Below are positions 3,261 to 38,732 of a DNA stretch of 42,597 bases, in pieces. The notes below the pieces were generated by a model, which was given only the letters and a program-made list of their open reading frames with translations, had not been told where the DNA came from and did no database searches. The position numbers were made by a program, and so were the translations under genes. This DNA comes from a virus (Duplodnaviria > Caudoviricetes), in IMG/VR virus record IMGVR_UViG_3300030329_000920, positions 1 to 42,597 of that record. One strand, written 5' to 3'. Position 1 is the stretch's first letter. Each line of letters begins with the position of its first letter.

Positions 3261-5777
3261 TCTATCTTCTGGGAAGATTTCTCCAAACAATCTAAGTGAC
3301 TGTTGTATTCCTAACATATTTTGCCAAGCCAATAAGCTTGTAGCATTATTCCAATCTGTTCTATTATAACTTCTATCTGGATTTAATGTTGCTTTTCCCG
3401 GTGCTTGTATAGCTGGTAAAAGTTTTTGGAATATTAATGAATATGTTGGATTACCAGTTATAATGTTTGTGTCTAGTCCACTACTTCTAAAGTGAAACAG
3501 TGGGTCTTCTCTAAATGGACTTAATCCTAAATCAATTAATGGTGGCATAATAGACGCAAATGCAGCTCGTTGAAATGCAGCTTTTGCAATTGATTCTGTA
3601 GACAACCTTTCTTCTAAAAACTTTTTAGCATCACTTCTTAATAATGATTGTGCGTATGACTGTAATATATAAGCATTTCCAGCCATAAACATACTCAACA
3701 TATAGCCTTCAAAAGCTTGGAAGTCTCTAAATTTTAATCCATGAATTAAATGTTTACCATAAGCAGTCATCATAAAACTTCTAAATTGAAATAAAGTTTT
3801 ACCTAATGTTCCGTCTGGTGTTCCACCAATACCTCTTAGCATTCCAAAATATGCTGTTTCACCAATGTCATTTTCTTGAACAGTTCGTCTTGCAAAACGT
3901 CTTACAGCAACAACAAGGGCTGCTCTTGCCTCATGGTCAGTCCATAAATCTAAATTAGCCATGTGGAGTTTACCACCTATTTCACCTTTTTGATATTTAG
4001 CGTGTTCTTTAAATTGTTGCATAATACGTTCACGCATTCTAGGACTAATACCTAAGTCTAACATTCTTTCAGCGTCTTTAGTTCCAAGTTCAACACCTAA
4101 AACTTTTTTAGAAAATATTTTTTTACCAGTGTTTGCTTCTGTTGCAAATTTAGTTAATAATTCTTTAACAGTAATACGTTGCATTATTGTGTTGGTAAGA
4201 AACATACCAGAAACTACTGAAGTACCTCTGTTACCAATATCTAAAAACCGCTCTGCTTTTCCAATAGTTTCATGCCCCATACGAGAACCAAAGTCATCTG
4301 TTTGGTTTGTAATAGCTTGTAGTGTTTTTTGTGAACCAATGCCCCCAAACCATATCTCAGCTTCAGCTAGTAGTGGGTCTTCAAGCGTACCATCTTTCAT
4401 TTTCTTTAACATTTTACGCATTGCTGGTACGTGTTTAAGAGTGTTAATTATCCCTACATTAGTCATAACAATCCCAAATTCTGCAATTTGTGGAAATCCT
4501 ACTTGGTTCATTAATCGTGAAAAATTATATTTACGTATAAATCTAGCAGCAGTTGATAAAGTTCCAGTAGGGTCATTTTCAAGTGGGACTCCTACTAAAT
4601 GTTTCCAGCCATCTTCTAAAGCTTGTACTTCTATTTCAGCTTTATTATCTGATACGTTTTTACCTCTGTAATTTGCTCTAGTTTGATTTATAAGTTTACG
4701 CCATTCACTGTCAGATTTAATTCCTTTTTGTGCTAAAGCAATTCTACCAGTTGTTGAATTAGCATAATTTAAGAATAATAATTCAGCGTCATTTTCAAAT
4801 AAGTCTTCTATGTTATATTTACCATCACTATATTTTTCATCTAATTGAATACGATGTTTAAGATAAGAAGGTGAACCAGTATCTTCTCTAACTACTTTAA
4901 ATAAATCGTCAGCTATTTCATCTATCTTATCTAAACCTAAATCTGTTTTATCTTGAAGTAATGTTCTAAATGTATCTTTCTTTTCCATAGAAGTAAGTAC
5001 ATGGTTAAGATTAATTCCTTGCTCTACTTTACTGCCTCTAACTACTTGCATTAAATGTCTTGCTACAGCAAATCTTGCTGTTTCATCTATATGTTTAGAA
5101 GACGAAGACAACATTGCTTTAGATAAGAAACGAACTACATTCTCTTCACCTATTTCAGCTACTAAGTCATCTAACTTTTTACGTGACCATATTCTTGTTA
5201 TATATCTATAATTAGTCTCAACATCTTCTGCTCCACGTACACCAACATTTTTCATCATTTCTAACAATTCTCTATATTGATTACGTTGTATGTCAGCCAT
5301 AGCGTCCACCCATTTATTTCCTGTAGGTGTATCACTACGAATAGCTTTAGAGACTAAAGAATTAAATTCTGCTCTAGCATCACCACTAAAACTACCTAAT
5401 GTTATTTTTCTACCATTTTGCTTCTGTTCTGATACCCACCCTTTAAAATTTATAGAGTGTGCTTTATTGTAAATTAATCGTTGTCTATCATGTTCAATGC
5501 CTTTTAATAAACTAGCTGATGAAGGTCTTACCCAACCTTTTTTAGCAGCTCCTACCGGGTCTTCAAATAATAACCAACCTAGTTTTCTTACAAAAGAATT
5601 TTTAGAACTGTTAGTGGCATTGGCTCTATCAAATCTATAACGTGAAGCCCATGTCATAGGAGCGTCATCAGCGTCATCAAAAAACTCCCAACGCTTTTCT
5701 TTTACAAAATCCATTGCGTCAGTTTCGTTATCAAACGTATCTAATAATTCTGCTTTATTAATATCACATTCTGCCAT
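3258..5777 (-). CDS. internal virion (ejection) protein, C-terminal portion of a gp16-like protein
   Basis: 839 aa; ...GKTLFQFRSFMMTAYGK... motif seen in gp16-position proteins; immediately precedes the tail fibre. Confidence 0.75.
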   Translation of the reverse strand: MAECDINKAELLDTFDNETDAMDFVKEKRWEFFDDADDAPMTWASRYRFDRANATNSSKNSFVRKLGWLLFEDPVGAAKKGWVRPSSASLLKGIEHDRQRLIYNKAHSINFKGWVSEQKQNGRKITLGSFSGDARAEFNSLVSKAIRSDTPTGNKWVDAMADIQRNQYRELLEMMKNVGVRGAEDVETNYRYITRIWSRKKLDDLVAEIGEENVVRFLSKAMLSSSSKHIDETARFAVARHLMQVVRGSKVEQGINLNHVLTSMEKKDTFRTLLQDKTDLGLDKIDEIADDLFKVVREDTGSPSYLKHRIQLDEKYSDGKYNIEDLFENDAELLFLNYANSTTGRIALAQKGIKSDSEWRKLINQTRANYRGKNVSDNKAEIEVQALEDGWKHLVGVPLENDPTGTLSTAARFIRKYNFSRLMNQVGFPQIAEFGIVMTNVGIINTLKHVPAMRKMLKKMKDGTLEDPLLAEAEIWFGGIGSQKTLQAITNQTDDFGSRMGHETIGKAERFLDIGNRGTSVVSGMFLTNTIMQRITVKELLTKFATEANTGKKIFSKKVLGVELGTKDAERMLDLGISPRMRERIMQQFKEHAKYQKGEIGGKLHMANLDLWTDHEARAALVVAVRRFARRTVQENDIGETAYFGMLRGIGGTPDGTLGKTLFQFRSFMMTAYGKHLIHGLKFRDFQAFEGYMLSMFMAGNAYILQSYAQSLLRSDAKKFLEERLSTESIAKAAFQRAAFASIMPPLIDLGLSPFREDPLFHFRSSGLDTNIITGNPTYSLIFQKLLPAIQAPGKATLNPDRSYNRTDWNNATSLLAWQNMLGIQQSLRLFGEIFPEDR

Positions 5778-18088: not shown

Positions 18089-18097
18089 ATAATTTCC

Positions 18098-18119
18098 TTC
18101 ATATATGGGTACTAATTAA
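18098..18119 (-). promoter_or_regulatory. phage RNA polymerase promoter (head operon)
   Basis: Minus strand TTAATTAGTACCCATATATGAA, at the start of the structural module. Confidence 0.85.
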
Positions 18120-19066
18120 CCCCATAAATCACCAGTTAGGCTACCTTTTGCATACTCTGTGGCCCTGTTCTCAAAGAAATTAGTGTGTTCCACTCCATTT
18201 AATATCCAATCAAGCCAAGGTAGAGGATTATCTTTAACTGCAAAGTTAGGTTTTAGACCTAATTGTAGTAACCTTCTATCTGCAATGTGTCTTATATATT
18301 GTTTAACTTGGTCAGGTTCTAAGCCTTCTACTCCACCTTGTTCAAAAGCTAAGTCAATAAACTTATCTTCTAACATGACCATGTCTCTACAAATATCATA
18401 TAAAGTTTTCTTAAAGTCATCATTCCAGATATGTTTATTCTCATCGATTAAAGTATGGAAAAGTTTAATCATGTTTTCTACATGGTGGCTTTCATCACGA
18501 ATACTCCATGTAACTATCTGACACATACCTTTCATTTTACCAAAGCGTTGAAAGTTTAGCAGCATTATAAAAGACGCAAACAATTGTAAGCCTTCTCCAA
18601 ATGCAGAAAATACAGCTAGTTCTCTAGCCAACCCTTCTACACCCTCACCTTTATTATTAAACAAGTAGTCATGCTTATCAGCCATAGCTTTATATTCTTG
18701 AAAAGCTTTGTACTCACTGTCTGGTAATCCAATTGTATCATTTAGTAATGAATAACTGTGTGCATGATTTGCTTCACTTGTAGCAATAGCAGATAACATC
18801 ATTCTTATTTCTGGTGGTTTAAATTTAGGAATATAATTATCTAGATAAGCTTGTGCTATATCTACATCACCTTGTGTAAAGAATTTTAATATCTGTGTTA
18901 TTAAATTTTTTTCCTCACTAGTTAATCGTTCATTCCAATCTCTAACATCTTCGGCTAAAGATACTTCACTAGGTAACCAGTGCATTTTCTGTTGCATATC
19001 ATAAGCTTCAAAAGCCCAAGGATATTGGAATGGTTTATAATAGCTTCTCTCTTTTAATAAACTCAT
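18116..19066 (-). CDS. nrdB: class I ribonucleotide reductase beta subunit
   Basis: YKPFQYPWA, HWLPSEV, EANH, EGLQLF, RDESHH and NFFENRATEY di-metal motifs; start moved to the MSLL ATG at 19066. Confidence 0.95.
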   Translation of the reverse strand: MSLLKERSYYKPFQYPWAFEAYDMQQKMHWLPSEVSLAEDVRDWNERLTSEEKNLITQILKFFTQGDVDIAQAYLDNYIPKFKPPEIRMMLSAIATSEANHAHSYSLLNDTIGLPDSEYKAFQEYKAMADKHDYLFNNKGEGVEGLARELAVFSAFGEGLQLFASFIMLLNFQRFGKMKGMCQIVTWSIRDESHHVENMIKLFHTLIDENKHIWNDDFKKTLYDICRDMVMLEDKFIDLAFEQGGVEGLEPDQVKQYIRHIADRRLLQLGLKPNFAVKDNPLPWLDWILNGVEHTNFFENRATEYAKGSLTGDLWG

Positions 19067-27468: not shown

Positions 27469-27480
27469 GGTTAACTCCTT

Positions 27481-27504
27481 TGGTTCATATAGGGGTACTA
27501 TTAA
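27481..27504 (-). promoter_or_regulatory. phage RNA polymerase promoter (replication operon)
   Basis: Minus strand TTAATAGTACCCCTATATGAACCA, identical to the copy at 37003..37026. Confidence 0.88.
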
Positions 27505-27518
27505 CCCACTAGTGGATT
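27503..27518. promoter_or_regulatory. palindromic operator-like site AAYCC-N6-GGATT
   Basis: AACCC-ACTAGT-GGATT overlapping the upstream edge of the phage promoter; sister copies at 30014, 30102, 30228, 30277 and 22006. Confidence 0.6.
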
Positions 27519-27521
27519 GTA

Positions 27522-29954
27522 TTAGGCGAAGAAAAATTCGCTCTTTAAAACTTCCTCAATATTGAAGTCCCCTTTTTCGGGAACTTCAGGAAGTTTGCTT
27601 TTTTGTTTGTCGCTAAGTATTGGTTTAATTGTTTCTTTAAAATCTTCTAAAGGACAACTCTTCGAATACATTTCAACAAACGACTCTCTTATTGTTTCTG
27701 AAAGAACTTGGCTGTCAGCAGCAAGTGTTCCAAAACTATCATGCACATTACAAAAATGTATAAGACCTTTATCGTAAGCATTAGATACAGTTAACATCAT
27801 GTGGGCTGAGTCTTGTGCGTGAATAAAGTTAGGCGGTAAACCATTACTCGCTTTAAGTACTGATAGTTTTTCTGTTTCAACATTTATTCTTGGTTTAATT
27901 ACTTCACCAAAAAGTTTTGTCTTAACTCTCATTGACTTAAATTCCGGGTAATCTTGAATGACAGGAAATCCTACAGGATTATACCAAACAATAGGATGAC
28001 CATTCTTAGCAAGAATACTTGCACATTTTTTTAGATAATCCATACCTTGTCTTGGTGCAGATAAAACTTCACCCATACTGTCCCATATTACTCCAGCCAT
28101 AAACGAACAAGCTTCAAAAGCTAGCTTGCCACTTCCAAATGGGTGTCCCTCTCCAGCGTCTTTTCTTTTGACTAAGTTTTCATCAACAAAGTCACTACAA
28201 GAATATCTAGTAGAGCCATAAGGACTTGTCATAATAGGACGTTTAACTGTTGAGCGTTTAACTCCATAGTCTAGCCAAAGTTTTGCAAATGGGCTGTCTG
28301 TCATTTTCTTTAGGTTTTCAATACCTTTATCTTTGACAACTGTATAAACATCTTGTGGAACATCACTGTTACTTAAATTAACAGCTTCAGCAGTTCCTTT
28401 GTGTTTTAAGATTGCTGCATAGTGTTGAATACCGTTACATGAACCGTCTTGAGAACAGATAAAACTACTTTCATATCCATAACCATGTTCTTGAAACTGC
28501 ACCCATTCATTACACCAAGCTAAGAATTGAAAAGGCTTATCAGCTTTTTCCCATTCTCTATTTCTAAATGGGTCTTCTTGCATTTCTTTAAACACATCAA
28601 AGTTTTCATTGACCCATTGCACTTGCTCGTCTCTAGTAACTTTATCAATTCCATAAAGCCCAGCCCCGGTAACTGCTAACCAATACGCCCCATTATTTTC
28701 TTCAGTAATTTTTTTACCAGTTCCAAAAAGGTGTAATGCTTTTGCAAAGTCAACTCCTTGCCCATTAAGATAATTTGTAACTTGATAACAACGTGACCTA
28801 AAATCTAATGTATGACAATGGTAGAAAATTTTATCTAAAAACATTTCTGCAATCCACATAACTTTAGCAAACAATAATCTTTTAGATTTTTGTCTAGCAT
28901 TTTCAGTATGTATAATTACAGCTTCTTGTCTGTATTTTTTTCTAGCTTCGGCATTAGTTTCAATGTCATGTGGTTTAGAAGGTAAATCTTCTAGTTCTGC
29001 TTTTGGTAAACCACCAATAGATATATTTTTATCCCATGCTTTTTTTAAAACATTAAAGATAAAGTGATTAATTTTATATGGTGTATTTTGTTGTGCATTT
29101 ACTGCCTTATAAACAATTGGCATTTTCACATCTTCTAAATTCTTTAGGTTTTTTCGATTATGATATTTTACTAATGCCAAGGGTTTTATGTGTCTTGAGT
29201 AATAGCCACCGCCTTGAGCCTTCCCCTCTTCCCACATTCTAGGTGGTACTATTGTTGGAAAGTATTCTGGGGCCAGTACCTCTAAAAAATCATTACGATT
29301 ATTAATCCACTTTATTGTTTCATCTGTAGCTAATAAAGTTCTTTCAAGGCGTTTTCTTTTAGGCAACATTTCAATCTTACATAGCCCGGTCGAAACACAC
29401 ATAAGTTCTATTAACTTGTACCCTACGTGTACCTTTTCGCCCCTAGTCCATTGAGTCCACTCAATACCATTTTTTTGTGCTGACTCTCTAAGCTTCCTTC
29501 TTTTATACTGATACCCAAATGACCTCTTATCTAGGTCAGCTTTAACAATTCCATAGTGTTCAGGATTTGACTCCTCAAATAATCGTAGTGCCGTCTCATC
29601 TTCTATTTTACTTGCAACATTAATTGCTGCACTTGTTAACTTCCGAGAAATAGTAATAGAATTAATAACTGATTTAGCAGTAACTAATGCAGCAATATTA
29701 GGCTCTATAAGACCTAAAAGCTTCCTAGCTATAGGTACTACTCCCTTTGTCTGTTCCCCCTCGTCTACATACTTTTGTATGGCGTCTGATAAAGGCTGAA
29801 TAGAATTTGCTAATAGTGTCTTTCCATAGTTAGCAAAACTTTCCTCGCCCCTTTGTTTGTGGTCAGTGACCCTTTTGTTGAAACGATTAATACCTCGTTC
29901 CCTCATGTCTTTTTCTAGTTCTAATTGTTCCCTTAAATATTCAAATGGTAACAT
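27522..29954 (-). CDS. single-subunit DNA-directed RNA polymerase (gp1-like)
   Basis: P.IVPP..W, LDFRSRCY, QDGSCNGIQHY, R.TVKRPIMT.PYG, PPNFIHAQD and VHDSFGT motifs; C-terminal FFFA. Confidence 0.98.
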   Translation of the reverse strand: MLPFEYLREQLELEKDMRERGINRFNKRVTDHKQRGEESFANYGKTLLANSIQPLSDAIQKYVDEGEQTKGVVPIARKLLGLIEPNIAALVTAKSVINSITISRKLTSAAINVASKIEDETALRLFEESNPEHYGIVKADLDKRSFGYQYKRRKLRESAQKNGIEWTQWTRGEKVHVGYKLIELMCVSTGLCKIEMLPKRKRLERTLLATDETIKWINNRNDFLEVLAPEYFPTIVPPRMWEEGKAQGGGYYSRHIKPLALVKYHNRKNLKNLEDVKMPIVYKAVNAQQNTPYKINHFIFNVLKKAWDKNISIGGLPKAELEDLPSKPHDIETNAEARKKYRQEAVIIHTENARQKSKRLLFAKVMWIAEMFLDKIFYHCHTLDFRSRCYQVTNYLNGQGVDFAKALHLFGTGKKITEENNGAYWLAVTGAGLYGIDKVTRDEQVQWVNENFDVFKEMQEDPFRNREWEKADKPFQFLAWCNEWVQFQEHGYGYESSFICSQDGSCNGIQHYAAILKHKGTAEAVNLSNSDVPQDVYTVVKDKGIENLKKMTDSPFAKLWLDYGVKRSTVKRPIMTSPYGSTRYSCSDFVDENLVKRKDAGEGHPFGSGKLAFEACSFMAGVIWDSMGEVLSAPRQGMDYLKKCASILAKNGHPIVWYNPVGFPVIQDYPEFKSMRVKTKLFGEVIKPRINVETEKLSVLKASNGLPPNFIHAQDSAHMMLTVSNAYDKGLIHFCNVHDSFGTLAADSQVLSETIRESFVEMYSKSCPLEDFKETIKPILSDKQKSKLPEVPEKGDFNIEEVLKSEFFFA

Positions 29955-29990
29955 TTATACTCCTTCTATAGAGGGCGTTAGTAACCCCCT

Positions 29991-30015
29991 TGGTTCATAT
30001 AGGGGTACTAATTAA
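29991..30015 (-). promoter_or_regulatory. phage RNA polymerase promoter upstream of the RNA polymerase gene itself
   Basis: Minus strand TTAATTAGTACCCCTATATGAACCA. Confidence 0.85.
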
Positions 30016-30292
30016 TCCATAGGTGGATTGTTCAGTACCTAAGTTTAATGTGTTTTTGGATTGCTGTTAGTTACTGTAAATCTAGGAAAAAATGCTTAAT
30101 CAATCCTATGGTGGATTGTAAAAAGAAATGGATTAGCAAACCTGTGGTTTAAGCCACTCACCCATCTCTCCTCGGTTATCATTCCCATGGTTTTATAGTA
30201 AAACTAACAACAAATCCAAAAAAATTTAATCCACTAGTGATTTTTACCCAACGGTTTTTGCATATCCGTTGGCTCTAACCCATCAGTGGATT
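30014..30292. repeat. four AAYCC-N6-GGATT-type palindromes flanking the attP core (operators or integrase arm sites)
   Basis: 30014 AATCC-ATAGGT-GGATT; 30102 AATCC-TATGGT-GGATT; 30228 AATCC-ACTAGT-GATTT; 30277 AACCC-ATCAGT-GGATT. Confidence 0.7.
30133..30171 (-). mobile_element. attP core: 5' half of tRNA-Ser(GCT)
   Basis: GGAGAGATGGGTGAGTGGCTTAAACCACAGGTTTGCTAA gives the acceptor 5' strand, D arm, anticodon stem 5' strand CAGGT and loop TTGCTAA, then the tRNA pattern stops; about 60 bp downstream of the integrase. Confidence 0.85.
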
Positions 30293-31139
30293 TCTCTAAA
30301 ACATTCACAAATTTAGATAGTGTAGTACTAAGTACTGTTGCGTATCGCTCCACCATCCTAACATCAGAATGTCCTAGCCATTGTTGAACAACTTTGTGTG
30401 GAACTTCTTTATTAAGAAGTCTGCACGCCAATGTTCGTCTAAAGCTATGAAGGGTAAATCTTTTATCCCCTTCAAGACCCATTGCTTTTCGAATTTTCCT
30501 AAACGTAGTGTCAGGTCTCCAATAAGCAAAATGTTGAAATAAGCATTCGTCAGGATTTTTATTTTCTGTAAACCGATTGACTATTTCTTGACTTCTTGAA
30601 GTTAAAGGTACGCCCCTAGGCTGATTGTTTTTTGTATCATACAAAGTTATATAACCTTCAAAACAATCTTTTACCCGGAGAGTCCTCAACTCATTTAGTC
30701 GCATTCCAGTATCTAATAAGAGAATATAAAAATCTCTATCGTCTTTGTAATGTGACCCCCAAGAATTAAGAATATTAATCATCTGTTGCTCTTCAGCTTC
30801 CGTTACATATCTTAACTCATGCTTTGGTTCTTTATACCAATTTATGAAAGGCCTTCGCTCTAATTTATATGTACTATAACGTTTTTGACAAAAAGTTATC
30901 ATTGTACTTAGAGCAGACAAGTATCTATTCTTTGTGGCGTTACTTATATTCTTTTTATTTAAGTCAGCCATCAGACCGTCTATCACCCCTTCATCAATAT
31001 CATTGATAAAAAAGTCTTCACCAAAATATTCAACAATATACTTGGCTCGTCCTACAACAACATCATCTTTGCCATTATCCCATTGCAAAGTTTTAACTTG
31101 CTTAAAGACTTGTCCAAGTTCTTTTGGATTGTGTCTCAT
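30234..31139 (-). CDS. int: tyrosine integrase
   Basis: TGMRLNE (R), TKN (K), LHSFRR (HxxR), LGHS (H), ERYA (Y); start at MRHNPK after a GGGGGTGA RBS. Confidence 0.95.
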   Translation of the reverse strand: MRHNPKELGQVFKQVKTLQWDNGKDDVVVGRAKYIVEYFGEDFFINDIDEGVIDGLMADLNKKNISNATKNRYLSALSTMITFCQKRYSTYKLERRPFINWYKEPKHELRYVTEAEEQQMINILNSWGSHYKDDRDFYILLLDTGMRLNELRTLRVKDCFEGYITLYDTKNNQPRGVPLTSRSQEIVNRFTENKNPDECLFQHFAYWRPDTTFRKIRKAMGLEGDKRFTLHSFRRTLACRLLNKEVPHKVVQQWLGHSDVRMVERYATVLSTTLSKFVNVLEKSTDGLEPTDMQKPLGKNH

Positions 31140-31179
31140 ACCTACTAATTCACCCCCTTTCAAATATGTTAAAGTATTA

Positions 31180-31503
31180 TTAAGAGATAGTCTCATACAA
31201 TCTCTTTCCTCTGTTAGTTAATTTAACTAACTTTCTTCTACGCTCAAATGGGTCTTCTTCAGCGACTAAAAAGTTTAATCCTTCTTTTTGTCTCCAAGAA
31301 TACTTTGAGAGTAAACTTACATTTCTACTAACGCTAGATTGTGCCATCGCCAATTTCTCGGCAATAACAGTCATCGGCACACCCTTATCTTTAGCGTGTA
31401 AACCTACATAAAGAAAAACTGCTATAGTTTGACTTTGTATGTCAGCGTCAAACTTCCGAAATTCCTCAATTGCATTAAAAAGTTTAATAGCACTTGTATT
31501 CAT
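31180..31503 (-). CDS. MarR-family winged-helix regulator
   Basis: IAEKLAMAQSSVSRNV helix-turn-helix and EDPFERRRKLVKLT.RG wing. Confidence 0.9.
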   Translation of the reverse strand: MNTSAIKLFNAIEEFRKFDADIQSQTIAVFLYVGLHAKDKGVPMTVIAEKLAMAQSSVSRNVSLLSKYSWRQKEGLNFLVAEEDPFERRRKLVKLTNRGKRLYETIS

Positions 31504-31581
31504 CTGTCTTTCCTCTGTTTGTTTTTTTCACCTTTATACTGCTGTAAATTAATAAACTAACAGTAACCAAGTATCGGAAGG

Positions 31582-31710
31582 TTATATAACGAATATTCGC
31601 CAATAACCAAAGTCAATAATGTATTCATTATTTTGTTTCACTATTTTAAATGAAGACCAAGTTTTCCAAGACTCGATATATATTTTAAACAATAAAATGT
31701 TAAGATACAT
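31582..31710 (-). CDS. 42-aa hypothetical protein
   Basis: Hand-translated MYLNILLFKIYIESWKTWSSFKIVKQNNEYIIDFGYWRIFVI; AGGAG RBS. Confidence 0.65.
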   Translation of the reverse strand: MYLNILLFKIYIESWKTWSSFKIVKQNNEYIIDFGYWRIFVI

Positions 31711-31719
31711 TAAGACTCC

Positions 31720-31818
31720 TTATTTTTTTGGTGGTTCTGGTTTTGTACTATATAAAATATTTAATGGTAATCTAGGTTTCCAAGTTTTAGATTTCCTAAC
31801 TTTTTTATATTTTTTCAT
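31720..31818 (-). CDS. 32-aa basic micro-protein
   Basis: Hand-translated MKKYKKVRKSKTWKPRLPLNILYSTKPEPPKK; GAGGGGGGGTG RBS. Confidence 0.55.
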   Translation of the reverse strand: MKKYKKVRKSKTWKPRLPLNILYSTKPEPPKK

Positions 31819-31863
31819 AATTTATAAATTCACCCCCCCTCACATAATTATGTGTTAATTTGA

Positions 31864-32109
31864 TTAATTATTAATAACTTTTAAATATTCTTTTTCATTA
31901 TTATAAATAACACCACCTCTTGAAAGATATTTTCCCTCTTTTTCTGCAATAGCCCAAGAAATAGCTTTTTCTTCTCTTTCTTCGTCTGTTTCTGCATTTG
32001 GAAAATAAAGCTCACCTCTTTCAATAGGATATTTTTTATTATCTATAATAATTTTAAAGCCAGAACCTGCCCAATAACTATGTTGGTCAATTTTAATATT
32101 ATATTTCAT
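31864..32109 (-). CDS. early hypothetical protein
   Basis: 81 aa from MKYNIK; shares the AATGAAAGTGAGAAAYATG leader with the next gene. Confidence 0.65.
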   Translation of the reverse strand: MKYNIKIDQHSYWAGSGFKIIIDNKKYPIERGELYFPNAETDEEREEKAISWAIAEKEGKYLSRGGVIYNNEKEYLKVINN

Positions 32110-32293
32110 GTTTCTCACTTTCATTTACTGATTTATTATGTGAAACAAAATACCCTTTTCTCTTTTTATCGTAATAAATTAAAGGTATTGTTTTTAAATA
32201 TTGATTATATTCTTTTTTATTCATTTTAACTTTTTTATCTAAAATTAAAACTTGATTATCAATTAAAATAGGTTGTTTAACTGTTTTATACAT
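32099..32293 (-). CDS. early hypothetical protein
   Basis: 64 aa from MYKTVK; same leader as the 32109 start. Confidence 0.6.
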   Translation of the reverse strand: MYKTVKQPILIDNQVLILDKKVKMNKKEYNQYLKTIPLIYYDKKRKGYFVSHNKSVNESEKHEI

Positions 32294-32478
32294 ATTTCTC
32301 ACTTTCATTATTGTTATAATGTTTGTATATTTTGTCGCATAAAATACGCCCCTCGTAAATATGCGAATTTGCATTAATCCCGGGAATGAGTGGATAATCT
32401 CGCCCCTCGCCCCTTCAAAACTGTCTCATAATTGAGCATACAAGAGGTTTAAGAGGGCCAGTCGACCCTCAGTACCCC

Positions 32479-32670
32479 CTAAAAATTAGGTATTATTGTT
32501 TCGCCCCTATCTAATAATTCTTTAAGATTGTCTGCAATTGTTTTAAAATTCTCAGCTTCAATCTCATTACCATACCATTCATGGTCATATTGCAATTGCC
32601 TAGCCTTTTTATATTCGACTAGGCAATCACTTAATCTATCGTCTTTAATGCTCGTGCTCAGATAATTCAA
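32479..32670 (-). CDS. early hypothetical protein
   Basis: Y..EW.G....G...IPNF ending; TTG start uncertain. Confidence 0.55.
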   Translation of the reverse strand: MNYLSTSIKDDRLSDCLVEYKKARQLQYDHEWYGNEIEAENFKTIADNLKELLDRGETIIPNF

Positions 32671-32857
32671 CGGTCACTTTTACATTATGTAAATGATGAC
32701 CTTCTTCTAAGCCCTCAATAATACCTTCTAATTTTTTCCAATGTATAGAATTAGAAGAATTAACTTCACCACATTGAACTATTTCAGATTTCTTTTTCTT
32801 TTCGTTCCACTCATGGTCAAAAAGTTTAATTTTATAAGTATCAATATATACACTCAT
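32645..32857 (-). CDS. early hypothetical protein
   Basis: 70 aa; GGAAGGAAAACTATG leader; ATGA overlap. Confidence 0.65.
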   Translation of the reverse strand: MSVYIDTYKIKLFDHEWNEKKKKSEIVQCGEVNSSNSIHWKKLEGIIEGLEEGHHLHNVKVTVELSEHEH

Positions 32858-33177
32858 AGTTTTCCTTCCGTAGTAGTTTTTAAAACATCTTCAATTTTCC
32901 AAAACATTCGTTTTAGTTCGATGTTTTCATTTTGCAATTTCTTGTCCTCTTTTATATCCATATAGATGACAAAACTGTCAGCTTTTTCTTTAGATATAGA
33001 ATGATACCAAGAACCCCTTCCCCTATACCTTCTTGTATAGGAGAAATCTTTATTTAAGTATTTTTTGAAAAGGGACATAAACAATTGTCCCTCATCATCA
33101 TTAGGCACACCATAAAAAATATAACCACCACGTTTGCCATTATTATTTTTCAATAAGCGTTTTTGAAATTCATTCAT
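32854..33177 (-). CDS. early hypothetical protein
   Basis: 107 aa; KKYLN...Y..RYRG motif; AGGAG RBS; ATGA overlap. Confidence 0.65.
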   Translation of the reverse strand: MNEFQKRLLKNNNGKRGGYIFYGVPNDDEGQLFMSLFKKYLNKDFSYTRRYRGRGSWYHSISKEKADSFVIYMDIKEDKKLQNENIELKRMFWKIEDVLKTTTEGKL

Positions 33178-34163
33178 AGGGCAACTCCTTCAAAGATATG
33201 TTTAATAACGTCAACAGTCCAACCATTGCCAATCATTTTATATCTTTGTGAATTGCTTACGCCTTCGGTGTAGTTATCATCAACTGTTTGCAATCTCTCA
33301 CATTCAAGTGGTGTTAACTTACGCCAATCGCTACGCTCTAAACCATACTCTTTAGGATTAAAATTAGTAGCAACTTTAGGCTCTCTATTTCCACCACCCA
33401 TTGTATTTAAAGTAGGTGCTTTTCCTTCCTCAGAATAAACACGCTTTAAACAATCATGTCCGTTGATGTCTTTAGCAATACCAACTTGAACCAAACCGTT
33501 TTTACTAGCCCTAACTTTTTTTACAAAGTCTAAACCTTTTTCAGTAGTAACGATTTGTCTTCTAGCTTTTTTTACATACTGTAACGGATTAATACCGTGA
33601 CTATAATTAGCGTCTATACAATATGATTTGTCCCTATCAACAAAGCCATACTCAAGAATATCTTTAAGCATAATTCCTTTGTCACTTGGAACAGTTACAT
33701 TTGGAATATTAGTCCAATATAACCTTCGTCTATGTTGAGCCGATACAAGACTAGAATTAATCTCAATTGGTTCAACACCTAAATGATGTGAAATAACATC
33801 TTGCCATTCCTTTTTCATTTTAACATTTTCAAGAAGGAAATATTGTGGTTTTAATTCTTGAACTAATTTTACAAATTCAAAGAATAGTTTTCCTCTTGGG
33901 TCTTCAAAGTTTAGTTTAGTCATAGACGCATTGCTAAATGATTGACAAGGAGAACCCCCTATAATCATGTCAATACGGTCTAATTTGGATATGTCTATTT
34001 TAGTCACGTCCCCTAAATGAATAGTATTTGGAAAGTTTTTCTTAGCAATAGAAATTGCATACTTATCAATTTCACTTGCGTAATACTTATCAACTTTAAT
34101 ACCACTTCTTTTAAGTGCTAACTGACCACAAGACATACCATCAAATAATGACAGTACATTCAT
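33174..34163 (-). CDS. DNA cytosine-5 methyltransferase
   Basis: VLSLFDGMSCG (motif I), GGSPCQSFS (catalytic PC), LLENV, Q.R.RLYW, RKLTPLECERLQ and YKMIGNGW motifs. Confidence 0.95.
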   Translation of the reverse strand: MNVLSLFDGMSCGQLALKRSGIKVDKYYASEIDKYAISIAKKNFPNTIHLGDVTKIDISKLDRIDMIIGGSPCQSFSNASMTKLNFEDPRGKLFFEFVKLVQELKPQYFLLENVKMKKEWQDVISHHLGVEPIEINSSLVSAQHRRRLYWTNIPNVTVPSDKGIMLKDILEYGFVDRDKSYCIDANYSHGINPLQYVKKARRQIVTTEKGLDFVKKVRASKNGLVQVGIAKDINGHDCLKRVYSEEGKAPTLNTMGGGNREPKVATNFNPKEYGLERSDWRKLTPLECERLQTVDDNYTEGVSNSQRYKMIGNGWTVDVIKHIFEGVAL

Positions 34164-34228
34164 AGTTTACCCTTCCGTATTTGAGAAAAGCAATCGCCCC
34201 TTGCAATCGCCCCTCGCCCCTTCACAAT

Positions 34229-34257
34229 AAAAAAAGGAGCGAAAAGTTTTCGCCCCT
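34229..34257 (-). terminator. intrinsic terminator upstream of the methyltransferase
   Basis: Minus strand GGGGCGAAA-ACT-TTTCGCTCC followed by TTTTTTT. Confidence 0.75.
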
Positions 34258-34381
34258 CGCCCCTTAGTACTATGCAAGGAATTAAGTCTTTTTCAAAACT
34301 TAACCAATAAACAATATTAAATAAAAATATTATTTAGTTTTTGTTTATTGTTTAAGCCTTCAAATAGTTTTTTTATGATTG

Positions 34382-34645
34382 TTAATTATCGTCTAAAATA
34401 ATATTTTTAATATCATCTAGTTTATTTTGTAATATTGTAGCATTTTTTAATTCTAAATTTCTTTTTATAACGCTTTCATTTTTAAAATATTTTAAATTGC
34501 TACGAATATAATGCACTAAATCTATATCTCCATAATTGACAAAACCAAGACTAGAACTTTCATAATCTTCATTTAAAAAATCTATAACATCACAAGGAAT
34601 AGTTTTATCATCATAAAGTAATTTTATTAATTTTCTTAATTTCAT
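34382..34645 (-). CDS. early hypothetical protein
   Basis: 87 aa; IP.D........Y.S.S....YGD.DLVH.IRS pattern; GAGAGG RBS. Confidence 0.65.
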   Translation of the reverse strand: MKLRKLIKLLYDDKTIPCDVIDFLNEDYESSSLGFVNYGDIDLVHYIRSNLKYFKNESVIKRNLELKNATILQNKLDDIKNIILDDN

Positions 34646-34669
34646 AGTTTAAACCTCTCATTAGTTTTT

Positions 34670-35383
34670 TTAATTAGTGTCCAAAACAAATCCGCTATAA
34701 TCTGTTTTAGCTTTTCCTTTTGCAATCAAACCACAAATAGAGTTTTTAATATCTTTAAATCTTAGGTCGCTTTCATCAGCATTTAAAACATTAAACCCTT
34801 TAAAAGTTTTGGGTAAGTATTTTCTAAATACAGCCGATATATTGCCCCCTAATTTTAAAATATTAAAAGCTTCAATTCTGTTATCCTCATTTAATGAATA
34901 CGTAAGATAATAATTTGAAGGTAGTTGACCATTAACAAATTTTAACGCCCTTTTATAAATTTTTGTATAATCATAAAATTGAACTGTTGGAAATTGTTGA
35001 ATGATATTATAGTTTTCCCACGCTATATCAGACGTACCATTTAAACGAATACAAGGAATTAAATTTTTACTTTCAGCGTTTTTAATAAATAGTTTTATTT
35101 CTTTTATTAACTGATTTAAAAAACTTTCACGCTCTTGAATGAACCAACGTGTTTTGTTAATTCTACCCAATTGCACATTACTGAATGCACCGTGGCCGGC
35201 CGTATTCAAACAAGCTTTTTTACAGCCATTACTTGCCATAGGACAAACATTAAAACCGCTAAGATTTGAAGGTGCTAAATATAAAATAGCGGTCATATAA
35301 CCGTATTTTTGACCTTTTACAGTCTTAGCGTTTTTATCAATGTTTAAAAGTTTTTTAGACTTTGTAAAATTTAATTTTTTCAT
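34670..35383 (-). CDS. GP88-like protein (radical-SAM-like Cys motif)
   Basis: CPMASNGCKKAC, IRLNGTSD, FYDYTK, SDLRF and GL.AKG motifs; start at MKKLNF after a GGAAGGGTGA RBS. Confidence 0.7.
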   Translation of the reverse strand: MKKLNFTKSKKLLNIDKNAKTVKGQKYGYMTAILYLAPSNLSGFNVCPMASNGCKKACLNTAGHGAFSNVQLGRINKTRWFIQERESFLNQLIKEIKLFIKNAESKNLIPCIRLNGTSDIAWENYNIIQQFPTVQFYDYTKIYKRALKFVNGQLPSNYYLTYSLNEDNRIEAFNILKLGGNISAVFRKYLPKTFKGFNVLNADESDLRFKDIKNSICGLIAKGKAKTDYSGFVLDTN

Positions 35384-35438
35384 AGTTTCACCCTTCCATA
35401 GTTTTAAAAAAACCATTGAAGGCTTAAACAATAAACAA

Positions 35439-35796
35439 ATATATTGAGGTGCTTAGTTAATAGGCTAGCCCACAGCGTCAGCCGTATAATTAAACCGTGT
35501 AATAATGTGTTAATTTGAAATTAACTAAATTGTTTTTAAACGCTGTTAAGAACTGATTAATATTACTGTTAGTAATATCTATCACGCCTTCAAAGCGTCT
35601 AGTATTATCTTTAAATAATCTATAAACTTTAATTTTATAAAAATTGTTTTTATAGTCATTGCCGATTGTCCTTAAATAATTATTTAAGACAATTTCATAT
35701 TTATTATTTTTTAAAGTGTTATTTTGTTTCATAGTTTCACCCTTCCATTCCATAGTTTTAAAAAAACTAGCCTATTAACAAAGCACCAAAATATAT
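35439..35796. repeat. inverted repeat pair A (27/30 bp; arms 35439..35468 and 35767..35796)
   Basis: ATATATTGAGGTGCTTAGTTAATAGGCTAG versus CTAGCCTATTAACAAAGCACCAAAATATAT. Confidence 0.9.
35490..35732 (-). CDS. first early gene, hypothetical
   Basis: 80 aa from MKQNN; leader essentially the same as that of the 35383 start. Confidence 0.65.
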   Translation of the reverse strand: MKQNNTLKNNKYEIVLNNYLRTIGNDYKNNFYKIKVYRLFKDNTRRFEGVIDITNSNINQFLTAFKNNLVNFKLTHYYTV

Positions 35797-36515
35797 TATT
35801 GCAATCGTGACCTTCTTTTAATGTTTATCTTTTCGAATTTGGACAACGAAAAGCATTAAACCGCCTTCACGATTAAGAGGACTTTCAGAAAGTTAAGGCT
35901 CGACCATATCCAACAATTTAGAGAACCCTTCGCCTAGACCAATAAACCGCCTTACTGACTCAATTTTTATAATAGGACTGTTATAAAGGCCGTTTAAAAA
36001 ATGTAAAAAAATATAGCCTTATTTTTATTTAAACATTTAATTTATTTAATCAACCCTTAAACGCATTAAATTTAATAATAGATTAATTCATATGGACATT
36101 TATTTTATTAATAGGTCTTTAAGTAGTCTAAATATGTAAAATGCGTTTAAAGGTGCTTTTTTTAAGTCTCAGTGAGTTTTTATGTGTTTTGCGACTAATC
36201 ACACTAAGGCTAGGCAATAAGCCAATTTAAAGGTGTAGTATGAGATTGTTTTGAAAAAAAATAGACTCTATCTGAAACAAAAAGCCAAAATAAAACTAAA
36301 AGTTAGCTAAAAATACCCAACGGTTACAATAACCGATTAAAAAGGCTTGATTTTTAAGGAATTTATTAGGATTTTAAAAGAGCCTATGGGGAAACTGGCT
36401 CTTCTTCTTAATATGATAGGGTCTCAGATTTTTTTATTAAATTTATTCATGCACATACGTATTAATCTCTTTATTAGATAGTATGGTAAGATATAAAAGA
36501 TAAGTAACTCTGTAA
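35797..36515. other. non-coding region, probable junction of the genome termini and site of early host promoters
   Basis: About 700 bp, AT-rich, no ORF; lies between the last late gene and the first early gene, where T7-like terminal repeats collapse in assemblies. Confidence 0.6.
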
Positions 36516-36986
36516 TCATAAGCTTCCAATCACCTTAGACAACAATATAGTATACCTACTGTCCTCTGCGTAACCACCAAGGTTATGCACTAAGACATCT
36601 AAGGAAACACCTTTAGCTTTTAATACCCGGAATTTGACATAATTATGGTGAGTCTCAATAACGTCTATGTAGTCTTCAACTGACTCGCATACATCGTTAT
36701 ATACCTTTACCCCAAAGTTAGCATTAGGGTTATCTAAAGGTTTTAATTGTGGTACGTGGCTCTTAAATGTCCTGATACCGAATAAGTTATTACCTTCTTT
36801 AGCAAATCTACTAGTACCCCATCCACTCTCTAATGCTGCTGTACCTATAATTAGTTTAATGGGTATGTCCCGGTGGTCAATTGCTTGTATACACCCTTCT
36901 ACCCTCTCTATGAACTTTTCTTTAACACTACTAGAGTATACTATAGTACTCCATAGTATACATATAACTAACACTATATATCTCAT
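36516..36986 (-). CDS. GH73 glucosaminidase (Bax-like) peptidoglycan hydrolase with N-terminal hydrophobic signal
   Basis: AALESGWGTSRFAKEGNNLFGI and YAED..Y motifs; start at MRYIVLVICILW. Confidence 0.85.
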   Translation of the reverse strand: MRYIVLVICILWSTIVYSSSVKEKFIERVEGCIQAIDHRDIPIKLIIGTAALESGWGTSRFAKEGNNLFGIRTFKSHVPQLKPLDNPNANFGVKVYNDVCESVEDYIDVIETHHNYVKFRVLKAKGVSLDVLVHNLGGYAEDSRYTILLSKVIGSL

Positions 36987-37002
36987 TGGGTAACCCCCCT
37001 CT

Positions 37003-37026
37003 TGGTTCATATAGGGGTACTATTAA
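37003..37026 (-). promoter_or_regulatory. phage RNA polymerase promoter near the right genome end
   Basis: Minus strand TTAATAGTACCCCTATATGAACCA. Confidence 0.88.
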
Positions 37027-38732
37027 AACCACCTTGTATCTTGGTGCTTTCTACCGAGAGCATTTTCCATAAATCTATCTAAATCTTTTTGTAAAAGGTC
37101 ATTCTTATGCTCATTAAAGGCCAATACTTGGTCTCTATCCATTCTTTCTACCCAATAGCCCACAGCAATAGATAATGCGTCTAAAGCGTCATCATGCCTT
37201 AAAGAACCCTTATCCTTTGTTATTCTAGTCATTTGTTTAAACAATTGGTGGTCTACGTCTTCTTTAAAATCTTCTTTGACTAATTCTTGGCTAATAACTA
37301 GCCTATGTTGGTTCATAACAGGCTCTAGAGTGTCTATAATACGTAATTCCTTCTGTTTAGAGTGTCTTACCTCTTCAATACTACAAGGATGTATTCTAGA
37401 CATTATAGGCTTCAATAATTGTGTAGCCATCCCATCACCAAAGTTACTCTCAATAACAACATAGTTAACGTCATTATCTTTTGCCATTTGGCTTAATCGT
37501 TCTAAAGTTTGGTCACTATATCCACCTTTCAATCCGCCAGCAGCAGTCAAATACAAGACACCATGCAACATTTTAACTATTGCATAGCCAGTTCTGTCTT
37601 GTCCACGACCTGAGGGGTCAATAGACATAACAGAACCTTCAAATGGAGCATATTCATTGCTCATGTGCATTGGGGCTACCCAATAGTCACCTTTAAGTCC
37701 TACATTCGGTAATTCACTGTCTATGGCTTTAATTTGTTCAATACCACCAGCCCATTGTATCTTTGCTGGTGCTTCTTTCCAAGATTCTATCCCAGAAACG
37801 CATATTAAATCGTTTAATTTAAGAGGGTACTTTTCTAAATCGCTTAATGTTGTATCAAGCATAAATTGAAGAGCAAAACCACTACGACCATAAGATGCTT
37901 GACGTTCCATTAGGTCTACTTCATCAAATCTTTTAGGGTCTGTTGGCTTACCTTCTAATTTTTTATCTTCTTTTAATTCATTTAATATTTTAGGAGCAAG
38001 TTTACTGCCTAAATTTATTATTTGAGTTTTAGTAGGATATAATGCAGTCCATATTCTAGTGTCGAAACCACGTTCTTCAAGGTCATTGTATAATGACATT
38101 TCAGTCTGTGGAGTTCCTAGGAATACAATACGTCCTACTTCAGGTTTGATGATAGCGTCAAATTCTTTAACAGTCTCACCCAACCTATCCCTCATTAATT
38201 GTGTTTGGGAATTGTTTGCTGACTCAACGTCATCGGCAATAATTAAATCTGCTCTTGACCCGGTTAGCTGCGATGTAACGCCTAATGATTTAACGGAAGG
38301 AGCGTGAGAGGCTCTTGCCGGGGCTACATCAAAACTTACTTTAGAATGTCTTTGGTCATCTCTAGGTGCTAAATGTTTTAGTATAGGCATTTCACCTATT
38401 AGTCTTTGAGTAAAAGTACTAAAATCATCAGCACGGTTTTTAGATGCTGAAACAACAAGTATGTTTCTTTGAGGGTTAAGTAATAATTGGTGACATACAA
38501 ATGCAGATGTAATCCAAGATTTTCCTACACCACGAAAAGCTTCTATAACGATACGTTTAGAACCGTTTTGTAGGTAGTCTGCTATGTCATATTGTATAGG
38601 GGTAGGGTCAGGAAGATTAAGATGTTTCCATGCAAGGTATAAAAAGTTTTTGAAGTTTTTTAACTGTGGCTCAATTTCCTTTTCTTTTGTTTTAGACCGT
38701 CCCACCATAACTGGTGTTTTCTTCTTCATCAA
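37023..38732 (-). CDS. terL: terminase large subunit (gp19-like)
   Basis: EAFRGVGKSWIT, TGSRADLIIADDVE, LGTPQ, IDPSGRG.D, ESNFGDG and HDDALDAL motifs. Confidence 0.97.
   Translation of the reverse strand: MMKKKTPVMVGRSKTKEKEIEPQLKNFKNFLYLAWKHLNLPDPTPIQYDIADYLQNGSKRIVIEAFRGVGKSWITSAFVCHQLLLNPQRNILVVSASKNRADDFSTFTQRLIGEMPILKHLAPRDDQRHSKVSFDVAPARASHAPSVKSLGVTSQLTGSRADLIIADDVESANNSQTQLMRDRLGETVKEFDAIIKPEVGRIVFLGTPQTEMSLYNDLEERGFDTRIWTALYPTKTQIINLGSKLAPKILNELKEDKKLEGKPTDPKRFDEVDLMERQASYGRSGFALQFMLDTTLSDLEKYPLKLNDLICVSGIESWKEAPAKIQWAGGIEQIKAIDSELPNVGLKGDYWVAPMHMSNEYAPFEGSVMSIDPSGRGQDRTGYAIVKMLHGVLYLTAAGGLKGGYSDQTLERLSQMAKDNDVNYVVIESNFGDGMATQLLKPIMSRIHPCSIEEVRHSKQKELRIIDTLEPVMNQHRLVISQELVKEDFKEDVDHQLFKQMTRITKDKGSLRHDDALDALSIAVGYWVERMDRDQVLAFNEHKNDLLQKDLDRFMENALGRKHQDTRWF

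Follow-up and report, generated by a model that had tools for sequence, protein, structure and literature searches.

Two inverted repeats, A and B, lie end to end in the early region of the 42,597-nt stretch of viral DNA analysed here (the window), each enclosing whole protein-coding genes. As far as sequence comparison can tell, their pairing is conserved among related phages while the letters and the enclosed genes change. Both stems very probably pair as RNA, and the likeliest role suggested for them is cutting by host RNase III: we give a probability of about 60% to a transcript in which A and B form abutting helices and RNase III cuts both. The evidence comprises the repeats, their intergenic placement, covariation, a bias towards the mRNA strand, variable cargo and a single cargo orientation.

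The window and its two stems

The main genes of the window were all on the minus strand. The terminase (38732-37023) was followed by an endolysin-like gene, a noncoding gap and small early genes, and then by a GP88-family gene, a C5 DNA methylase, a MarR-like regulator, a tyrosine integrase and a T7-type RNA polymerase. The closest phage matches were the uncultured MedDCM-OCT-S42-C7 and the Pelagibacter phages HTVC309P, HTVC134P, Bylgja and HTVC120P. An att-like core of 39 bases (30171-30133, minus strand) had 86 exact matches in bacterial genomes; the hosts among the 80 matches listed were marine alphaproteobacteria, some labelled Pelagibacteraceae or HIMB59. The core was the 5' part of tRNA-Ser(GCT) in all eight genomes checked. 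We infer a SAR11-type host for the window phage; SAR11 are the commonest bacteria of the ocean. Gene content, best phage matches and the tRNA-Ser att-like core together identify the window as a T7-like temperate pelagiphage of the HTVC019P type. This group is described in bioRxiv 410191, where the accessible part of the text gives tRNA-Cys, -Leu and -Arg as its integration targets, with no 'tRNA-Ser'. Searching genome contigs for prophages with a GP88 alignment pattern gave 147 pattern matches, none of them confirmed.

The features of the early region, in the order of transcription, were:

36026..36053, minus strand: putative weak promoter-like site (TTG ... TA-rich hexamer), assigned by position
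35798..36022, minus strand: noncoding leader, exchangeable among relatives; predicted 5' product if stem A is cut
35767..35797, minus strand: arm A1, opening arm of stem A, with one U of the central U·U at 35780
35733..35766, minus strand: leader with ribosome-binding site, within loop A
35490..35732, minus strand: 80-aa ORF, cargo of loop A, no PHROG or Pfam match
35438..35468, minus strand: arm A2, closing arm of stem A, with the other U of the U·U at 35455
35406..35439, minus strand: arm B1, opening arm of stem B (exact core 35439-35416), abutting A2
35384..35405, minus strand: second copy of the leader and ribosome-binding site
34670..35383, minus strand: GP88-family gene, 237 aa (Pfam PF17338, E 3.7e-52; phrog_1617)
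34382..34645, minus strand: 87-aa ORF, second gene of loop B
34340..34373, minus strand: arm B2, closing arm of stem B (exact core 34363-34340)
34288..34314, minus strand: degenerate B1 copy directly after B2, which can refold outer B2 into a local hairpin
34234..34265, minus strand: terminator-like G-rich hairpin and U-tract, upstream of the DNA methylase gene

Pair A (35797-35767 with 35468-35438) was complementary at 28 of 31 positions, with 298 nt between the arms; on slightly narrower bounds, the 27 of 30 given by the initial annotation was reproduced. Its interior held a 2x2 U-rich loop and one U·U (35780·35455). The exact core of pair B (35439-35416 with 34363-34340) was complementary at 24 of 24 positions across 1052 nt and reached ~35 bp via one bulge and a G·U pair, in agreement with the perfect 24 nt and the extension described before. 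Likewise, the ORFs 35732-35490, 35383-34670 and 34645-34382 did lie inside the loops with all arms intergenic, and a nearly identical leader did follow each opening arm (35733..35766 and 35384..35405). Folding of 35815-34320 as RNA formed both helices, abutting, in the MFE and the centroid structure. Both were also present in the folds of the isolates HTVC309P and Bylgja (MFE only).

B was the longest exact inverted repeat of the 42.6-kb window (24, the runner-up being 16), and in 60 third-order Markov copies of the window the longest never exceeded 18. Two sequencing runs, possibly the source samples themselves, contained the full stretch in a single contig without differences. Since the contigs were unbroken in two runs and both stems occurred in cultured isolates, the stems are not a one-off assembly artefact, the outcome that the initial annotation had named as a danger. 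The sequence is AT-rich, and one related contig (L005, ~3290-3470) has a 60-nt perfect fold-back at arm A1 that is likely an assembly error in that contig, but with the shuffle control, the cultured isolates and the compensatory changes described below, the probability of chance or artefact is negligible.

A loose promoter-like pattern was found 150–290 nt upstream of A1 in 27 of 31 loci; the site at 36026..36053 did not pass a sigma-70 consensus scan. The U-tract of the G-rich hairpin at 34234..34265 was missing in several relatives.

Distribution, covariation and cargo

We collected 200 loci with a GP88 match, 155 after duplicate removal, with two alignment scans contributing the best 80 of 424 and the best 80 of 423 matches. 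A scan for the G-rich motif gave 21 loci, of which those with a GP88 match were scored for stems. Stem scores were bimodal across these loci. With T7-like neighbours, 27 of 38 loci for A and 32 of 37 for B scored at least 25, and without such neighbours 96 of 101 for A and 90 of 91 for B scored at most 16. The misses in the first group were two distant GC-rich phages and three loci with a single weak neighbour match, plus, for A, six loci cut short upstream; two of these six, HTVC134P and HTVC120P, carried A1 at the opposite end of the record. High scorers in the second group were four short contigs with the group's arms and the promoter-like L192. A score of at least 22, selected with a scheme treating G·U as neutral, was reached by 31 A and 33 B non-duplicate loci, which are related and amount to about seven lineages per stem, not 31 independent cases. 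The stems were present in the cultured phages HTVC120P, HTVC134P, HTVC309P and Bylgja.

Stems were missing at ~90 GP88 loci of other phage types, and none was found at these positions in L038 and L040 (distant GC-rich T7-like GP88 loci), L214, L223 and L224. Abutting stems were also missing in the Pelagivirus and Votkovvirus records checked, whose RNA polymerases had 38–49% identity to that of the window, as compared with 72–98% for the stem-bearing phages. Scattered long-range pairings scoring 18–26 in Pelagivirus, T7 and LUZ100 were not common to several genomes and were rejected as chance. The gapped stem scan, at a threshold of 18, did not list T7's known hairpins, and therefore it misses weak hairpins; no stem scored above 19 in the T7 early region. 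Inverted repeats in L022, L024, L025 and L192 were rejected as stems and look like convergent promoter copies: in these loci, from another phage type, inverted sigma-70-like promoter copies flank the GP88 block.

Units of repeat, leader, ORF and repeat with compensatory changes, which the initial annotation had anticipated in related phages, were found. Anchored on a shared pentamer, the alignment of B had 227 of 231 cells paired. Without the lineage of the window it had 206 of 210, with 13 of 21 columns changed on both sides, and in slid controls only 77–99 of 209–220 cells paired. The arms of A paired at 91% with their own partner and at 48% across lineages, and the internal U·U was kept in all 16 distinct A cores. 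Column counts for A were left unused, as the automatic U·U anchor was misplaced in two of 11 A rows. When cores were redefined by Watson-Crick pairs only, the mRNA-strand reading of the single mismatches gave nine G·U, one A·C, 10 U·U, five A·A and two U·C. The 9:1 ratio of G·U to A·C (p 0.02, contexts not independent) points to one strand, in the mRNA sense. Covariation and this bias both support the RNA-level pairing that had been proposed from the window alone.

The cargo was variable. Each loop A (298–732 nt) held between one and three small ORFs, which together belong to at least six families; the 80-aa ORF family of the window occurred in four loci. Loop B (997–1143 nt) held GP88 and one of two unrelated small genes, the 87-aa ORF family in 27 of 33 loci and the other family in six. 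In all 64 stems the first start codon was 16–34 nt inside the opening arm (17–34 nt in the 31 A loci), beyond the core stem; ribosome-binding sites were never within core stems, and the last stop codon was 2–99 nt ahead of the closing arm. A related strain with ~180-fold contig depth had the same order, with 184 bases inserted directly ahead of A2; its leader differed, the replaced segment ending at 35796, the outer end of A1.

Such exchange agrees with one half of an alternative in the initial annotation, that the repeats delimit swappable or invertible DNA cassettes: the units are swappable among relatives, but nothing indicates that they invert. All cargo was in sense orientation, with inverted cargo in none of 31 A loops and none of 33 B loops, and no strand-switch joints were listed in eight sequencing runs, which consist of assembled contigs in which rare forms are lost. 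It is very unlikely that the arms act in DNA, as sites where cassettes are inverted or exchanged site-specifically by an enzyme such as the phage's tyrosine integrase. The phage does have an integrase gene and its cargo is swapped, in one case exactly to the outer end of A1, but the integrase has its own tRNA-Ser att-like core elsewhere, and homologous recombination at the conserved arms and leaders accounts for the swapping. A mismatch is retained at the centre of stem A, the sequences of A and B are unrelated, the arms vary between lineages, and wobble pairs favour the mRNA strand; both orientations and matching crossover cores, as expected of invertible segments, were not found at the stems. 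Given the covariation, the G·U bias, the variable cargo and the lack of inverted cargo, the stems are almost certainly RNA structures, not recombination sites.

Two runs labelled 'metatranscriptomic' were flagged as probably DNA. The only run recorded as RNA contained a 170-nt contig (depth 2; 35782-35948) that ends inside arm A1 and was given no weight.

Proposed RNase III processing and other RNA-level readings

In the mechanism that we propose, a first early transcript would be made from an upstream host promoter, and the arms of A and B would pair co-transcriptionally into abutting long-range helices of ~23–35 bp. Host RNase III would then cut both helices near their centres, like 16S/23S rRNA stalks. 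The predicted products are a leader RNA of ~240 nt, a cassette-A and a cassette-B mRNA, each with its ends held together by the inner half-stem and its ribosome-binding site free, a short junction piece between the stems, and a downstream RNA, at whose newly made 5' end the B1 copy after B2 could form a hairpin. The phage would gain separate, end-protected early messages, presumably of greater stability, and gene content that can change with the processing signal left as is.

The dimensions of the stems fit this enzyme. The ideal RNase III substrate is a helix of 22 bp (PMC3867540); the stem cores had 23–40 pairs, and both stems thus reach the required length of ~22 bp or more. Both arms lie on one RNA strand, of which the transcription is assumed, and the helix is favoured in folding. 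B. subtilis RNase III cuts mRNA duplexes of 10–36 bp with up to 505 nt between the sites, and pairing beside its cut sites exceeds 90% (bioRxiv 2023.03.12.532304). A mismatch at the target site may limit RNase III to cutting one strand (PMC3867540), and the central U·U in stem A could mean one-strand nicking, or binding without cutting. An RNase III gene (TIGR02191) was found in five of five genomes matching the att-like core, taken as those of likely hosts, and in four of them over the cut-off. In the four likely host genomes examined, the pre-16S and pre-23S stems were 22–37 bp, which supports the pre-rRNA-like geometry put forward initially.

The E. coli proximal- and distal-box rules for RNase III (in part from PMC1540722) did not separate the stems from shuffles (two-sided score 113 vs 113.7, p 0.6). 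This test has little power, because the pre-16S stems of the likely hosts themselves score only 5–8. Newly mapped E. coli RNase III sites also match the consensus poorly (PMC5371410). A perfect single proximal box was found in nine of 14 stems, with 5.9 expected (p 0.07).

In six of seven Pelagivirus records, a hairpin of ~22 bp was conserved between genes. It formed only in the mRNA strand, contained an A·A mismatch and had an upper stem that covaries:

L079:1500-1545, 1837-1880; L339:1019; L340:1339, 1854; L342:1306, 2019; L076:4721; L077:4884: Pelagivirus early-region hairpin

This hairpin is a candidate T7-style RNase III site, and hairpins of its type were also found further downstream in four of 14 stem-bearing loci. 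A profile built from the Pelagivirus hairpins, which are themselves putative RNase III sites and of which some end in a U-tract, scored 69.6 against 14 representative long stems, as compared with 15.3±9.7 for pair shuffles (0 of 2000), and 60.0 vs 29.0±12.1 for GC-matched windows (p 0.007). The test was post hoc, devised after the likeness had been noticed, and the window's own stem A misses the profile (score -0.7).

The helices may also form and stay uncut, as clamps against exonucleases or as a device for stop-to-start ribosome recycling, perhaps with RNase III or a phage protein bound to them. Paired termini lengthened the half-life of RNA in E. coli, and RNase III expression was without effect there (PMC1635301); the short distances from the last stop codon to the closing arm and from the opening arm to the first start codon suit recycling, and the E. 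coli box score was negative. However, an internal clamp in an uncut polycistronic RNA shields no real end unless the RNA is also cut beyond it, the arms are similar to local hairpins whose size suits RNase III, and the competing hairpin after B2 covers mostly its outer half, which is simpler to understand after a cut. Uncut clamps are thus unlikely, though the most serious rival to cutting by RNase III.

B2 is directly followed by a copy of B1's outer part, which forms the competing hairpin: the outer 7–10 bases of B2 folded locally with it in 19 of 21 loci. The exact B1 copy was longer than in shuffles (p<0.05) in 14 of 21 loci; the signal is moderate, as shuffled sequence still pairs 5–7 of 12 bases. 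The window's own copy can pair across the greater part of B2, at -27.4 kcal/mol (20 °C). With RNase III cutting, this copy would provide a 5' hairpin for the downstream RNA. A switch is another conceivable use: B1:B2 and the local hairpin at B2 would alternate, depending on transcription speed or loop translation, and set termination or the translation of methylase, MarR and integrase. Besides the reach of the copy into B2, the terminator-like hairpin that comes next and the upstream bases of A1, which can invade the start of B1 in several lineages, favour such a switch. Yet the long helix wins in the MFE, ribosome-binding sites are outside the core stems in all cases, the U-tract is unconserved, and L200 and L205 lack the local hairpin, which makes a switch improbable.

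If RNase III does cut, a further step is conceivable but doubtful, namely that the released cassette is a closed-loop mRNA, either ligated into a covalent circle or behaving as one, its ribosomes passing from the last stop codon back to the first start codon. Such cassettes would be long-lived plug-in mini-messages and, together with a free structured leader RNA, would suit slow-growing SAR11 cells.

Comparison with known systems

The stems would work like an rRNA processing stalk but are neither that nor a T7-type hairpin. In bacteria, the leader-trailer stalks of pre-16S and pre-23S rRNA are cut by RNase III. Both they and the phage stems are long-range helices, 22–37 bp in rRNA, with a weak centre, enclosing a whole gene, and two such units follow in series on one transcript. 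The phage cargo differs in being protein-coding and variable, the phage stems abut without a spacer tRNA, and their cutting is only predicted. No rRNA gene is enclosed, and a boxA-like conserved site, as in the upstream antitermination of rRNA operons, was not found in 20 loci; boxA mimicry was therefore rejected.

T7 early mRNA is cut by RNase III at local hairpins. These sites belong to a phage of the same order, and they too are intergenic, between the first genes of the early region. T7 hairpins are local, whereas the arms in the window are 0.3–1.1 kb apart (loops of 298–732 and 997–1143 nt across the loci), so that a cut would leave paired 5' and 3' ends rather than a 3' hairpin. Type I toxin mRNAs also have long-range pairing around a small ORF, in which 5'-3' contacts hide the ribosome-binding site. 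In the phage the ribosome-binding site is free in the loop, with none sequestered in 64 stems, and no antisense partner was seen.

The long-range duplexes of B. subtilis are intramolecular mRNA helices of 10–36 bp cut with a 2-nt stagger across hundreds of nt, similar to what we predict here, but they span at most 505 nt, and the accessible part of their description does not present them as intergenic arms around serial whole cistrons (bioRxiv 2023.03.12.532304). Engineered paired-termini antisense RNAs share flanking inverted repeats that pair the ends and give a longer half-life, and differ in being artificial, noncoding and RNase III independent (PMC1635301).

In the literature covered, which left most subscription and older T7, SP82 and SPO1 work outside its scope, we found no description of such stems on phage mRNA. 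The main texts of the pelagiphage papers examined contained neither 'RNase' nor 'inverted repeat'. To our knowledge, what is understood of early mRNA processing in phages comes chiefly from the local hairpins of T7. If the proposed processing is true, it would be a second way to cut and stabilise early messages, in a lineage of T7's order, and a modular socket for accessory genes. The layout is directly testable with cultured phage-host pairs (HTVC120P and HTVC134P on HTCC7211; also HTVC309P and Bylgja) and a sister genus that uses hairpins.

The noncoding leader upstream of A1 (window 36022-35798, minus strand; L003:3364-3560; L337:1805-1985; among others) is 150–290 nt long, and several interchangeable types of it exist. 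Cleavage of stem A would free it as a small RNA. In one type (seven loci) the 5' end pairs with a segment ~130 nt further on, and the inner hairpins covary, with five of 28 pairs changed on both sides. The leader had no Rfam match and weak folding z-scores. Rfam gave no credible family in the early region of the window (29900-37100; one match with E 0.43) or in 10 related loci.

In two T7-like marine phages of higher GC content (L073:3208-3571 and L074:848-1214), a rod of ~75 bp, made up of three nested segments, closed a loop of ~195 nt directly after the terminase gene. A phage with 63% GC (L042:972-3995) had GC-rich palindromic elements repeated between early genes.

Four copies of a 35-nt motif stand ahead of gene blocks in the window (18089-18123, 27475-27509, 29985-30019 and 36997-37031) and are probably promoters of the phage RNA polymerase. 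All 13 copies of GGGGCG in the window are on the mRNA strand, and six other pelagiphage genomes almost lack the motif. Its longer form GGGGCGA has 10 copies, clustered in the early region and at the start of the RNA polymerase:

34263, 34256, 34220, 34213, 34200, 32507, 32413, 32406, 29851, 29443, minus strand: GGGGCG-type motif

GGGGCG may bind a protein, mark a strand-specific nick or serve as a variant ribosome-binding site.
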